DNA from: a virus
Length of the DNA stretch: 64,000 nt
Virus record (IMG/VR): IMGVR_UViG_3300045971_000149
Span: 93,926-157,925 of that record
Strand: one strand, 5' to 3'
Shown: in pieces, positions 49,285 to 55,194 of the stretch
Numbering within the stretch: position 1 is the first letter of the stretch
Layout of the letters: every line of letters begins with the position of its first letter
Position numbers and translations under genes: made by a program
Notes under the pieces: generated by a model
The model's input: the letters and a program-made list of their open reading frames with translations, nothing else
Database searches by the model: none
Told to the model about the DNA's origin: nothing

Positions 49285-49360
49285 GCGGTATTAGCTCAGT
49301 GGTTAGAGCGTGGACTTCTAAACTCCCGGGTCGAGAGTTCGATTCTCTCATATCGCACCA
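49285..49360 (+). tRNA. tRNA with CUA anticodon (putative amber suppressor)
   Basis: 76 nt; acceptor GCGGTAT/ATATCGC, D arm GCTC/GAGC, anticodon loop TT-CTA-AA, T arm GAGAG-TTCGATT-CTCTC, encoded CCA. The anticodon stem has two mismatches. Confidence 0.85.
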
Positions 49361-51019: not shown

Positions 51020-51805
51020 ATGAAAGCCAAAACTTATCGCTCTATTTTTATCTCTGATGTACATTTAGGTACAAGGGACTGTAAAGCAGAACAACTAAAC
51101 AACTTCCTCAAACATAACTCCTGCGAAACGCTATATATGGTAGGCGATATTATAGATGCATGGCGTATTCAGCAAAACAAGTGGCGCTGGAAGCAAAGTC
51201 ATACAAATGTTGTCCGACGTGTGTTAGGACATGCAAAGCGTGGTACTCGCGTAGTCTATATAGCAGGCAATCACGACGAATTTCTAAGACCCATGATACC
51301 ATATGGGTTTTCTTTTGGGCATGTCGAAATTTGTAATCAAATAGAGCATATTGGTGCAGACGGCAAGCATTACCTAGTAGTGCATGGAGATTTATTTGAT
51401 GGAATAACACGATTAGCTCCTTGGCTTGCGTTCCTTGGGGATAAAGCATATGATTTTATCCTAAATCTAAATGGCAAGTTTAACTGGTTTCGCCACAAGA
51501 TGGGATTCGGGTATTGGTCACTAAGTAAATATCTCAAAGCGCGAGTTAAGAAAGCTGTAGACTTTATGTTTAAGTTTGAACAGAATTTAGCAGACTACTG
51601 TAAGAAGCGCGGATTTGACGGCATAATCTGCGGGCACATACACCACGCTGAAATTAAAGAAATTGACGGTATTACATATATGAACGACGGTGATTGGGTA
51701 GAATCAATGACTGCATTAGTAGAACATCACAACGGACGTTGGGAGATAATACATTGGACACAGGCAAGCGATGAAACAAAAGACGATACTGATAATAACA
51801 GATAA
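51020..51805 (+). CDS. Metallophosphoesterase, PlcP/LpxH-like
   Basis: SDVHLG, GDIID, GNHD, HGD, GHIH and NDGDWVES. Confidence 0.9.
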   Translation: MKAKTYRSIFISDVHLGTRDCKAEQLNNFLKHNSCETLYMVGDIIDAWRIQQNKWRWKQSHTNVVRRVLGHAKRGTRVVYIAGNHDEFLRPMIPYGFSFGHVEICNQIEHIGADGKHYLVVHGDLFDGITRLAPWLAFLGDKAYDFILNLNGKFNWFRHKMGFGYWSLSKYLKARVKKAVDFMFKFEQNLADYCKKRGFDGIICGHIHHAEIKEIDGITYMNDGDWVESMTALVEHHNGRWEIIHWTQASDETKDDTDNNR

Positions 51806-52775
51806 TTTACCGGACCAAATAAATGGCGTTGTCACGACTTACAAAAACATTGAGATTTGCGCGACTCGTGATAATTATAACGTTGTGGTGCTTCATCCCG
51901 GGTGGTTCAGCTATGTTGATTGCCCTCGCTACAACGAAGTCAAGATTACCTATCCGCGGCAGATGGGCAAGAAGATTGCGGAGATCGATCCGGATTATAT
52001 CCATATCGCCACAGAAGGTCCTCTTGGTATGTGGGCTAGAAAGTATCTTTCACTATATAATATTAGGCACAATACCGCTTATCATACTAAATTCCCTGAA
52101 GGGCTAAAAGCACTATTCGGAATACCGGAATCTATTACTTGGAAGTTTGTTCGTTGGTTCCACAAGCATAGCGGCAAGGTACTTACTACTACAGACTCAA
52201 TGGTTAAAGAATTGCAAGCCCACGGGTTTGATGGGGATATTATTCCTTGGACACGCGGAGTCGATAGAAGCATATTTTATCCCGACCATGCTCTTAACAA
52301 GCAGGTAACATTAGTATGTGTTAGCCGCGTAAGCAAAGAAAAGAATTTAGAAGATTTCTTTGAGTTGGACTATCCGGGCGCACGTAAGATTATGGTCGGT
52401 GACGGACCAATGCGAGCAGCATACGAAAAGAAATATCCGGATGTGGAATTCGTAGGTTTTAAAATTGGTGCAGATTTAGCAGAATATTACAGATTGGCAG
52501 ATGTGTTTGTATTCCCATCACGTTGGGAAACATTTGGCATTGTAATGATTGAAGCAATGGCGTGCGGCACGCCAGTTGCCGCTTATCCGTGTCAAGGTCC
52601 TGAAGATGTTATTGATGAAGGTGTCACCGGATGTATGGACGAAGACTTAACATCGGCAGTTAAAAGCGCCATACAGTTAGATAGACAAACTGTGTTAAAC
52701 GGTAGTATGCGTTGGAGTTGGGAAAATGCTTGGAAAATATTCCGCGATAATCTGATTGACTGTCGAAGCAGATAG
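51771..52775 (+). CDS. GT4 glycosyltransferase (Agt-like)
   Basis: QINGVVTT, HIATEGPLG, YHTKFPE, SRVSKEKN and ETFGIVMIEAMACGTPV. Confidence 0.92.
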   Translation: MKQKTILIITDNLPDQINGVVTTYKNIEICATRDNYNVVVLHPGWFSYVDCPRYNEVKITYPRQMGKKIAEIDPDYIHIATEGPLGMWARKYLSLYNIRHNTAYHTKFPEGLKALFGIPESITWKFVRWFHKHSGKVLTTTDSMVKELQAHGFDGDIIPWTRGVDRSIFYPDHALNKQVTLVCVSRVSKEKNLEDFFELDYPGARKIMVGDGPMRAAYEKKYPDVEFVGFKIGADLAEYYRLADVFVFPSRWETFGIVMIEAMACGTPVAAYPCQGPEDVIDEGVTGCMDEDLTSAVKSAIQLDRQTVLNGSMRWSWENAWKIFRDNLIDCRSR

Positions 52776-52979
52776 TGCTATACTAAATACATCATGCAAA
52801 TGTAGATCATCAACCATTTAACAATGCCCGAGCTGTGTAGCGAGCAATCGCTTACGTTTGGGCTTTCTTTTGATTGGAGGAAATATGTAGATTCATATTA
52901 ACGGCCCTCCTTAAGTGGATTACACTTTTCAAGTCAGTAATCAAATTTCCAAACACTTAACATCAGGAGAAATCAAATG
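52756..52979 (+). promoter_or_regulatory. Promoter and structured attenuator-like leader with two ATG-TAG uORFs
   Basis: TTGACT-N17-TATACT; uORFs at 52794 and 52885; terminator-like and RBS-masking hairpins. Confidence 0.7.
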
Positions 52980-53300
52980 GAAAACCAATTTAACATCACT
53001 AAAGAACAATACCTTACTATGCTTTCAACTTGGAGAGCAAAGAAGGCGCACGATGCAGCGGATCAAATCCTCTACAACATCTTGCGAACAAAGCCTGCAG
53101 ATAGGGGCTTTACTGCAAAGGGTAAAAACATACAAGGAAACGATCCTTGGTTCGCGTACCACAATGCGTTGTTCCTTGCTCGTAATCGCGTGAGAATTAC
53201 AAGTTCCGGACTGGAAGCACGTAAAGAAGCGTTTAAGAAAACTTTCGGATTCGATGCTCCCGACGATATCGCAGCAAAGTTAGAAGGAGCAAAGAAATGA
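52977..53300 (+). CDS. Hypothetical protein
   Basis: AGGAG RBS; ILYNILRTKP..RGF; ATGA-coupled to the Pth2-like gene. Confidence 0.75.
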   Translation: MENQFNITKEQYLTMLSTWRAKKAHDAADQILYNILRTKPADRGFTAKGKNIQGNDPWFAYHNALFLARNRVRITSSGLEARKEAFKKTFGFDAPDDIAAKLEGAKK

Positions 53301-53602
53301 ACCCGTACATGTATTTGTTCGTTCGAAGCGACTTGTCGGCACCGCAACAGATTGTTCAAACTGCACATGCTGTAGACGAGATAGGAATGCGTTACAAATC
53401 CGATGGTACTAATTACATGGTATTGTGTGGAGCAACTAACGAAGAACACCTGCTCACAATTGCAGAATGTTTGGACAAAAACGAGATCGATTACGAAATG
53501 TTCTTTGAGCCAGATATCGGTGCGCACACTGCGATTGCAACTCGCCCATTAAGAGGCACTGAGAGAGCACCGTTAAAGAAGTTTCGGCTAAAGACGGCTT
53601 GA
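53297..53602 (+). CDS. Peptidyl-tRNA hydrolase 2 (Pth2)-like protein
   Basis: YLFVRSDL...QIVQTAHA...VL...FFEPDI...TAIATRP matches the Pth2 pattern. Confidence 0.8.
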   Translation: MNPYMYLFVRSDLSAPQQIVQTAHAVDEIGMRYKSDGTNYMVLCGATNEEHLLTIAECLDKNEIDYEMFFEPDIGAHTAIATRPLRGTERAPLKKFRLKTA

Positions 53603-53655: not shown

Positions 53656-54087
53656 ATGGAATACGCAATTGAAGCAAGTAATAAGAAAATTGACAAACTG
53701 TTTGAAGCAATTATGCCGTCCATAGTTGACCAACTCGGACTTACTAATAGCAGAAAAGCAGTTCTAATCAAAGTTACTCCGGACACTCCCGAAGGGTTTA
53801 TAGGTGCAACTTATGATCTTAAATTTGCAGATTGCATGCTTGTGCTCATTACTCCTCCAAAGCGAGTTACAGAATCATCATTGTTAGATATCGCACTAAC
53901 TCTTGCACACGAAATGGTCCATGTAAGACAACTTTCCAAAGGTATTATGCAGATGTTACCCAATAATGCTCGCATATGGAAGGGTAAGAAGTACACTAAA
54001 AAAACAAAGTATTTGGATCAGCCTTGGGAATTGGATGCATTTGCCAGACAAGAAATTATTTTGCGAAGGGCTATCGAACTCTATTGA
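53656..54087 (+). CDS. Zinc metallopeptidase-like protein (HExxH)
   Basis: LAHEMVHVRQ...PWELDA. Confidence 0.75.
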   Translation: MEYAIEASNKKIDKLFEAIMPSIVDQLGLTNSRKAVLIKVTPDTPEGFIGATYDLKFADCMLVLITPPKRVTESSLLDIALTLAHEMVHVRQLSKGIMQMLPNNARIWKGKKYTKKTKYLDQPWELDAFARQEIILRRAIELY

Positions 54088-54112
54088 CAGCGGGTAATAA
54101 ACCTGCTATAAT
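54084..54112 (+). promoter_or_regulatory. Sigma70-type promoter
   Basis: TTGACA-N17-TATAAT. Confidence 0.85.
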
Positions 54113-54168
54113 AAATACATGCAGCAAAGAGATAGACTCGATGCACATACTTTACATAGGATTTATGT

Positions 54169-55194
54169 ATGACTAAGAAATATGATACCCTCGTCCTAAT
54201 CGGACGCTTTCAACCATTCCACTCGGCACACTTACTGCTGGTTCAACGTGCTACTGCACTTGCCAAAAATGTTGTGTTTATTGTGGGCTCAGCAAATCAA
54301 CCGCGTACTTATAAGAATCCATTTTCTTTCGCAGAGCGAAAGGTTATGATCTACGAAGCAACCCGCGGAATGGCAGGAACACTTTCGTTTCACACCGAGC
54401 CAAACCCTGATAGTCTGTATAACGATCAAGCATGGGCCGTTCGTGTTCAAGCAGCAGTCGCAAAGCATACTAAGCCTGGCGACAAGATTGGCATTATCGG
54501 ACACAAGAAAGACCCTTCAAGTTTCTACTTAGATATGTTTCCGCAATGGGAATTTGAATCAGTAGAACTATTAGAACCGCTCGATGCAACTGACATTCGA
54601 GACTTGTATTTCAGGTGTGATGTGAATATGAACTTCATTAAGAATGTTGTTCCACCGTCCACATTCGATATACTGAATTACTTTAAGGACACAAAGGACT
54701 ACGAGCAGATCATCAAGGAACGTGCATTTATTGCACATTACAAAAAGCAATACGAGTCGCTGCCCTACCCGCCAATCTTTAGCACTGCCGATGCTGTGGT
54801 TATCCAAAGCGGTCACGTACTGATGGTGAAGCGTCGTGCAGAACCCGGTAAAGGACTATGGGCATTGCCCGGGGGCTATGTGAATGCAAATACTGACCGC
54901 ACTGTTGAAGATGCTATGCTGCGTGAGCTGCGTGAAGAAACGATGATTAAGGTTCCTGCTCCGGTCCTCCGTGGCAGCATTGTACGAAGTAAGGTTTTTG
55001 ATGCAATTGACCGTAGCCCACGAGGACGGATCATTACACATGCATTCTTTATCAAATTGTCCGACGGTGAACTGCCAAAGGTTAAAGGTGCCGATGATGC
55101 TGAAAAGGCAAAGTGGGTTCCTATTGCAAGTGTAAAGAGCGAAGAATGCTTCGAAGACCACTACGAAATTCTACAACACTTTTTAGGAGCGTAA
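54169..55194 (+). CDS. nadM: Bifunctional NMN adenylyltransferase / Nudix ADP-ribose hydrolase
   Basis: IGRFQPFHSAH, KNPFSFAER and Nudix box GGYV...RELREET. Confidence 0.93.
   Translation: MTKKYDTLVLIGRFQPFHSAHLLLVQRATALAKNVVFIVGSANQPRTYKNPFSFAERKVMIYEATRGMAGTLSFHTEPNPDSLYNDQAWAVRVQAAVAKHTKPGDKIGIIGHKKDPSSFYLDMFPQWEFESVELLEPLDATDIRDLYFRCDVNMNFIKNVVPPSTFDILNYFKDTKDYEQIIKERAFIAHYKKQYESLPYPPIFSTADAVVIQSGHVLMVKRRAEPGKGLWALPGGYVNANTDRTVEDAMLRELREETMIKVPAPVLRGSIVRSKVFDAIDRSPRGRIITHAFFIKLSDGELPKVKGADDAEKAKWVPIASVKSEECFEDHYEILQHFLGA

Follow-up and report, generated by a model that had tools for sequence, protein, structure and literature searches.

A candidate amber-gated leader of a Pth2-fold operon in a standard-code phage, proposed to be read by a phage suppressor tRNA

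Leader-peptide attenuators such as those of ermC/ermB, cat, cmlA, SecM-secA and MifM-yidC2 are built on a common plan: a short upstream open reading frame (uORF) with its own Shine-Dalgarno sequence (SD) precedes a helix that masks the next SD, and a ribosome standing at the end of the leader ORF covers the 5' arm of this helix and frees the SD. In the RAPP/RGPP arrest peptides (ApdA, ApdP, ApcA; PMC10951233, PMC12992588) a C-terminal X-Pro-Pro is encoded by a small ORF upstream of the regulated gene. Phage tRNA(CUA) together with in-frame TAG codons, the latter proposed to delay translation, is found in the code-15 recoded phages (10.1101/2021.08.26.457843, PMC9523058). Many large phages of standard code also carry an amber suppressor tRNA without known target; XacN1, a Xanthomonas phage, has two tRNA(CUA) genes, and the authors could not find their target genes (PMC5852040). 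The leader described here shares features with all of these systems. It is located in a 64,000-nucleotide (nt) stretch of the IMG/VR virus record IMGVR_UViG_3300045971_000149 (positions 93,926 to 157,925; hereafter the window), which forms the right-hand end of a phage contig of 158 kb, and it precedes two genes, for a 107-amino-acid (aa) protein and for a protein with a predicted Pth2 fold. We propose, with a probability of roughly 0.75, that this leader is a switch by which the two-gene operon would be expressed only when the phage tRNA(CUA) reads UAG as sense.

The window has a G+C content of 40% and is densely coding under the standard code; all of its features given below lie on the plus strand. 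The leader extends over ~190 nt from a sigma-70-type promoter (52756-52784, TTGACT-17-TATACT with an extended -10 TG, 10/12 matches in a consensus scan) to the 107-aa protein gene starting at 52977. The same promoter layout followed by AAATACA is repeated at 53599, 54084 and 56223 and is also present in the relatives L018, L019 and L024 (related loci are designated by L numbers). The main element of the leader is uORF2 (52876-52914). Its SD GGAGG (52876-52880) sits 4 nt 5' of the ATG (52885-52887) and provides a ribosome-binding site of its own, as an SD does in all relatives. The ATG is followed directly by an amber codon (52888-52890), then by five sense codons, Pro-Pro (52906-52911) and TAA (52912-52914). 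The end of uORF2 forms part of a predicted SD-masking helix (52907-52969), whose 5' arm (52907-52917) shares bases with the last Pro codon and the uORF2 stop, and whose 3' arm consists of 52954-52960 together with GGAG 52966-52969 of the main SD. CTCC 52907-52910 pairs with this GGAG and 52911-52917 with 52954-52960, whereas the apical hairpin (52918-52942) is formed by pairing of 52918-52923 with 52937-52942 and of 52924-52927 with 52931-52934.

These motifs and pairings had been listed in an original prediction made from the letters of the window, and every coordinate in it proved correct. Both folds described there are also predicted by ViennaRNA. The whole leader (52790-52990) folds with -52.5 kcal/mol (z = -3.9; 0 of 200 shuffles were equally stable) into a structure that pairs GGAGG with CCUCC and places the amber codon in the loop of a small hairpin. 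When the segment from uORF2 to the main start is folded, the uORF end and the main SD pair with one another, the paired probability of the SD being 0.99.

An SD followed by ATG, up to 8 codons and TAG occurs at 55 sites in the 158-kb contig, and at 24 of them 3-10 open codons follow; the window leader is the sole one among the 55 with a Pro-Pro-stop ending. By such counts the pattern does not stand out from chance within this genome alone, and its significance comes from conservation in related loci, which were therefore collected and compared. Relatives were gathered both for the 107-aa protein (family A1, 20 proteins) and for the second protein, from viral, metagenome and assembly collections as well as from cultured phages. 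A metagenome scan with the protein profile gave 3 loci, and a comparison of the locus DNA with a phage collection gave no match.

About 30 lineages with the gene pair have an early in-frame stop as a gate to the operon, located either in a short uORF or inside a gene. The short uORFs are composed of a start codon, an internal stop, 2-7 sense codons, Pro-Pro and a stop, with Pro-Pro in most lineages 5-7 codons past the last internal stop. Close relatives keep M-amber-IHINGPP or M-amber-ICNNGPP, and in the ICNNGPP group all nucleotide differences are synonymous third-position changes (AAC/AAT, GGC/GGT, ATT/ATC). More distant leaders read MM-amber-IRNHDPP, ML-amber-IRNHSPP, ML-amber-MPNKDPP, MHT-amber-IPNIRPP, ML-amber-IHNNGPP, MHTQM-amber-MAPKHPP, MKL-amber-IRPP and MKL-amber-IHPP, and one has two ambers and a RIPP ending. 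Pro-Pro is spelled by four different codon pairs (CCT CCT, CCT CCA, CCA CCC and CCA CCA). The homologues thus keep the ATG...TAG and its frame to the xPP-stop through synonymous changes, as had been anticipated. A purine follows the internal stop in all 31 entries of the table of loci; such a context favours suppression in E. coli.

The SD-masking helix is conserved in the same way. In all 15 short-uORF leaders tested, bases at or just after the uORF stop are predicted to pair with bases just before or within the main SD, with a pair mass of 8-15 as compared to 1-4 in dinucleotide shuffles (minimum free energy and pair-probability tests). The observed value was reached by at most 6/300 or by 1/200 shuffles in 13 of the 15 leaders, while L061 and L062 are weaker than ~1 in 30; the window leader has a pair mass of 10.0 (shuffles, 1.7), a value that 2 of 300 shuffles reached. 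Equivalent helices occur in 12 lineages, and as the sequences of their arms differ from lineage to lineage, the helix appears to be kept by covariation, which the original prediction had named as a check. In every short-uORF lineage the helix adjoins the uORF stop.

The other relatives achieve the gate by different layouts. In L054, L073, L065, L058 and L009/L056 the amber-containing uORF continues as far as the main start codon (ATGA) or the SD, where it ends, and in L072 it ends on the SD; this is the textbook layout for translational coupling. With the masking helix as with the overlapping uORF, the main gene would therefore depend for its translation on a ribosome moving beyond the internal stop. 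Where relatives have no uORF, the amber is located inside the protein gene itself, at codons 3-8. The A1 gene of L008 starts with MKQS-amber followed by the invariant ITKEQY block, and no other start codon is available. In L064, L068, L069, L070, L071 and the cultured Ralstonia phage RsoM2USA it is the Pth2-fold gene that has an amber at one of codons 3-8. The RsoM2USA gene (L077:1477-1812; MG752970.1 ~68883-69218, minus strand) is unannotated and begins ATG TTG TAG ATT, the amber being codon 3. In ORF364 of XacN1 (L076:943-966) an SD-led ATG AAG TAG is found in frame, seven codons 5' of the annotated start of a Pth2 fusion.

The proposed input of the switch is encoded nearby. A tRNA gene with the anticodon CUA (49285-49360; ARAGORN, 58 bits with the Rfam tRNA model) has its own promoter-like site and is the one tRNA of the window, which also carries a permuted alpha-type transfer-messenger RNA (tmRNA). 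Homologous tRNA(CUA) genes immediately precede the leader in the distant relatives L004, L015, L016/17, L047/48 and L053. The anticodon of L004 is read as UCU by ARAGORN, whereas the Infernal alignment gives U33-CUA-A37, and inspection by eye shows this anticodon loop in L023 as well. In L001, L060-L064, L068, L069, L071 and L072 tRNA(CUA) is at most 3 kb away and is often the sole tRNA there; in L055, L058, L065 and RsoM2USA, as in the window, it is elsewhere on the contig (~13 kb from the Pth2-fold gene in RsoM2USA). It is present wherever enough contig is available, the loci in which it was not found being small fragments or represented by only 6 kb of sequence. In L059, a single case, the only tRNA in the locus is an ochre tRNA(UUA) and the leader reads MIKVTDN-TAA-VPSLHDPP-TAG, so that the internal stop matches the anticodon. 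The co-occurrence with tRNA(CUA) that had been suggested as a check is thereby seen, often as direct adjacency. It may also be mentioned that the phage fragments with L065 and L058 carry very few tRNA types, namely Gly, Pro and CUA in the former and Gly, Met and CUA in the latter; Gly and Pro are also the amino acids at the conserved G-P-P terminus of the leader peptide.

The phage itself is not TAG-recoded. Neither the many genes with in-frame TAG nor the improved gene map of recoded phages was found: coding density is 0.926 with the standard code and 0.937 with TAG as sense, and ordinary genes end in TAG, for example the glycosyltransferase gene upstream of the leader (51771-52775). The amber codon of the leader is therefore special and no ordinary sense codon. 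No other convincing amber-gated gene was found in the 158-kb contig.

Taken together, the comparison of related loci argues strongly for gating by the stop, for the masking helix and for the need of a suppressor tRNA. The switch would work as follows. When release factor 1 (RF1) terminates at the amber, the ribosome would leave ~17 nt short of the helix, with the main SD still masked. When the suppressor tRNA decodes UAG, the ribosome would run into the 5' arm of the helix; slow termination after Pro-Pro would then let it hold the helix open while a second ribosome starts on the 107-aa gene, and the Pth2-fold gene would be translated by coupling through ATGA. The likely purpose of such a device is to tie both proteins to the activity of the suppressor tRNA, as feed-forward or feedback control of read-through.

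The least secure step is the pause. It had been predicted that a ribosome reading through UAG reaches GPP, stalls and unmasks the SD; comparison bears out the gate and the helix, while we infer the pause at Pro-Pro-stop from the general effect of C-terminal prolines, which slow termination (PMC6412442), and not from the RAPP/RGPP class. Mutation of Arg to Ala abolishes RAPP/RGPP arrest, and AAPP variants are arrest-defective (PMC12992588). Several observations weigh against the proposed switch. The window peptide ends in NGPP and lacks the Arg that is the core of RAPP/RGPP, an exact RAPP being found only in L054. The Pro-Pro-stop is not universal, with L015 ending in SP and L023 in PT. In L050/51 the conserved PDIRPP-stop, behind UAG-A, is shifted by one base relative to the frame of the amber, and two independent assemblies agree on this. 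At codon 2, suppression faces competition from RF1 and from the drop-off of very short peptidyl-tRNAs. The lineages share ancestry, and their counts are not independent events. Finally, the terminator function considered below for the first part of the leader is deduced from hairpin shape.

The leader of L050 (2261-2334 and 2506-2548; the same in L051) is the only one with such an out-of-frame PDIRPP-stop. Located 240 nt upstream, the neighbouring tRNA(CUA) combines a perfect stem of 5 bp with an anticodon loop of 9 nt, for which Infernal gives a 2-nt insertion. It is possible that this locus represents natural four-base decoding of UAGA, a restart at TTG or a decayed leader. A four-base reading of UAGA in the window was rejected, the synonymous sites and the Pro-Pro-stop being in the triplet frame.

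Since RF1 and the tRNA compete for the amber, the same anatomy would fit a sensor of RF1, in which a scarce or inhibited host RF1 raises read-through of the leader amber and the operon responds. The original prediction had named both inputs, amber suppression and RF1 shortage; the linkage to the tRNA speaks for the first, and a shortage of RF1 and the supply of tRNA are indistinguishable by this anatomy. The tight linkage of tRNA(CUA) and the pairing of the ochre tRNA with TAA show that the tRNA is needed, and near-cognate read-through without it would be very low. RF1 sensing as the actual input is thus unlikely, and it would be a variant of the proposed switch, no true alternative.

Slightly less likely again is an operator acting as RNA only, in which UGUAGAU and the small hairpin would bind a protein, such as the 107-aa product in autoregulation, and the helix would be switched without translation past UAG. 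All 11 aligned leaders of the A1 clade have an identical UGUAGAU core, a constraint well beyond what a stop codon needs, and ~27 nt around it are without synonymous variation in L015, L016 and L023. The amber codon of the window (hairpin 52882-52899) and that of L055 (2499-2516), two distant lineages, lie in the same hexaloop UAGAUU on stems of different sequence. Such an operator leaves unexplained the kept frame to the Pro-Pro-stop with its synonymous changes, the uORFs ending exactly on the main start, the ambers inside protein genes and the pairing of TAA with tRNA(UUA).

It is quite improbable that the leader is a start-stop mini-ORF with termination at UAG and a restart on the next codon, for which no suppressor tRNA would be needed. 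The codon after the amber is indeed ATT, ATC or ATG, a weak or normal start, in the nearest clade, but elsewhere it is ATA, ACC, GTA, GTT, GTC, GAT or GAA; moreover, the SD is placed for the upstream ATG, and the linkage to the tRNA would be unexplained. Least probable of all is chance, or ordinary recoding of TAG to sense in the whole phage: SD-ATG-TAG patterns are common in a single genome and a crude ORF comparison hinted that TAG is enriched in a block at 50-70 kb of the contig, but the design is kept across ~30 lineages, TAG ends normal genes, and codon-usage scoring exposes the TAG ORFs of the block as spurious.

The block (G000:C1:50000-70000, outside the window) comprises 20 kb with many small minus-strand genes and a lower coding density, and mimics TAG recoding in naive ORF comparisons. 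As a TAG-recoded region it was rejected. Its TAG-containing ORFs give no PHROG hits, have no relatives in a 353-kb sister genome and score negative in codon usage; the coding signal is on the opposite strand, where all three stops are used, and the ORFs are antisense shadows of the small genes. Reading TAA as sense gains similar coverage.

In the clade of the window the leader probably has a further layer. uORF1 (52794-52805, ATG CAA ATG TAG) begins 9 nt after the -10 element, and the transcript is therefore probably near-leaderless or leaderless. If its TAG is read, the frame is open to the TAA at 52899-52901, across a terminator-like hairpin that lies ~23 nt further on and is followed by a U-tract (TTTCTTTT, 52826-52871; hairpin 52826-52863, U-tract 52864-52871; -22.2 kcal/mol, z = -4.05). 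uORF1 is kept in L001, L018, L019-21 and L024, and a stable GC-based hairpin with a U-tract is found at the same place in L001, L018, L019 and L024, its sequence being different in L001 and L024. In all five lineages with this layer the read-through frame is open for ~30 codons through the hairpin, and in four of the five it joins uORF2 to give one leader ORF with two ambers; the window is one base off. A leader ORF followed by a putative intrinsic terminator downstream of the promoter, as in an attenuator, is thus kept in five lineages. Read-through of uORF1 would carry the ribosome into the hairpin and block termination, so that transcription and translation would both depend on suppression; we consider the chances of this to be about even. 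No conserved antiterminator hairpin was seen in the leader folds of the window and its relatives, and direct invasion of the terminator by the ribosome, with no antiterminator choice, is the proposed route.

Two further leader-like arrangements were noted in the window. The TAG closing the glycosyltransferase gene is in frame with uORF1 (52773-52805 from this TAG to the uORF1 amber), and its read-through would add about ten residues, ending at the uORF1 amber; this may be a coincidence. Directly 3' of the promoter at 54084-54112 there is, by eye, a near-leaderless 17-codon ORF (54119-54172), the TGA of which overlaps the ATG (54169) of an NMN (nicotinamide mononucleotide) adenylyltransferase-Nudix gene, giving another gene-coupled leader ORF.

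The first gene of the operon (52977-53300) encodes the 107-aa helical protein (family A1, phrog_22448), modelled by AlphaFold with a predicted local distance difference test score (pLDDT) of 75. The protein gave no Pfam hit, no Foldseek match and no Atlas hit, and its best VIA-align Z was 3.4. The second gene (53297-53602), whose start overlaps the preceding stop (ATGA), encodes a 101-aa protein which, according to its model, has the Pth2 alpha/beta fold: pLDDT is 90, and Foldseek gives a probability of 1.0 with template modelling (TM) scores of 0.74-0.77 to 2zv3, 1q7s, 3erj and 1xty (archaeal Pth2 and human Bit1). The assignment as Pth2-like made from the sequence is upheld for the fold and less so for the enzyme. 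The score with Pfam PTH2 (PF01981) is 19.9 bits, under the curated cut-off of 23, and some homologues at 55-64% identity carry PF01981. The catalytic Lys of Pth2 belongs to the N-terminal GK motif (Sulfolobus enzyme). When the profile is aligned to a solved Pth2, the invariant Gln17-Gln18 stand opposite the Lys pair, so that Gln occupies the catalytic Lys position; the invariant Asp73 and Thr78 may match other active-site residues. In several phages the gene pair is embedded in tRNA arrays and therefore fits a role in tRNA or translation biology.

It is tempting, if rather speculative, to regard tRNA(CUA), the 107-aa protein and the Pth2-fold protein as a self-contained controller of read-through, in which the leader would gauge the reading of UAG and the proteins would in turn influence it; the Pth2-fold enzyme might, for example, target acylated or peptidyl tRNA(CUA), or the small protein might act on RF1. 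If so, phages of standard code would alter what UAG means for a limited time and in a regulated manner. In any case, phage tRNA(CUA) finds in the window leader and its relatives a natural target that is conserved, along with a plausible circuit of control. Two cultured phages, RsoM2USA and XacN1, carry gated versions, which makes the design directly testable. The RsoM2USA gene also illustrates a general warning for annotation, namely that standard gene callers miss or truncate stop-gated genes.

The original prediction knew of no described leader with an arrest peptide hidden behind a stop codon in this way, and full-text literature searches agree with it: they returned recoded phages, engineered amber switches and arrest peptides but no published natural leader gated by a suppressor tRNA. 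If the proposed switch is true, it would be the first case in nature of a leader whose sensed signal is a stop codon decoded by a dedicated tRNA. In the known leader-peptide attenuators the input is a drug or the secretion state, acting via the nascent peptide, whereas in the window the ribosome would reach the critical place only if a suppressor tRNA decodes an early stop. Unlike the RAPP/RGPP peptides, the window peptide has NGPP without the essential Arg and a nascent chain of only 9 residues; its Pro-Pro directly precedes the stop, and any pause would therefore be at termination. The autoregulation of prfB (release factor 2) by an in-frame UGA is similar in that an early in-frame stop makes expression hang on termination versus alternative decoding. 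There, however, a +1 frameshift inside the gene senses the gene's own product, while here a tRNA would read the stop, in most cases in a separate leader ORF. In the code-15 phages TAG is spread across many late genes; in the present genome of standard code the ambers are found only at the entrance to one small operon. The same logic as proposed here has been built into engineered amber switches, namely a TAG in the tna leader controlling transcription (reviewed in PMC6412442) and a suppressor-tRNA feed-forward loop (PMC7969014). In these an amber placed in a leader peptide or early in a gene ties the output to the suppressor tRNA, and co-transcription of the tRNA yields a coherent feed-forward loop. 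Those switches are man-made, and the leader of the window would be their natural counterpart.

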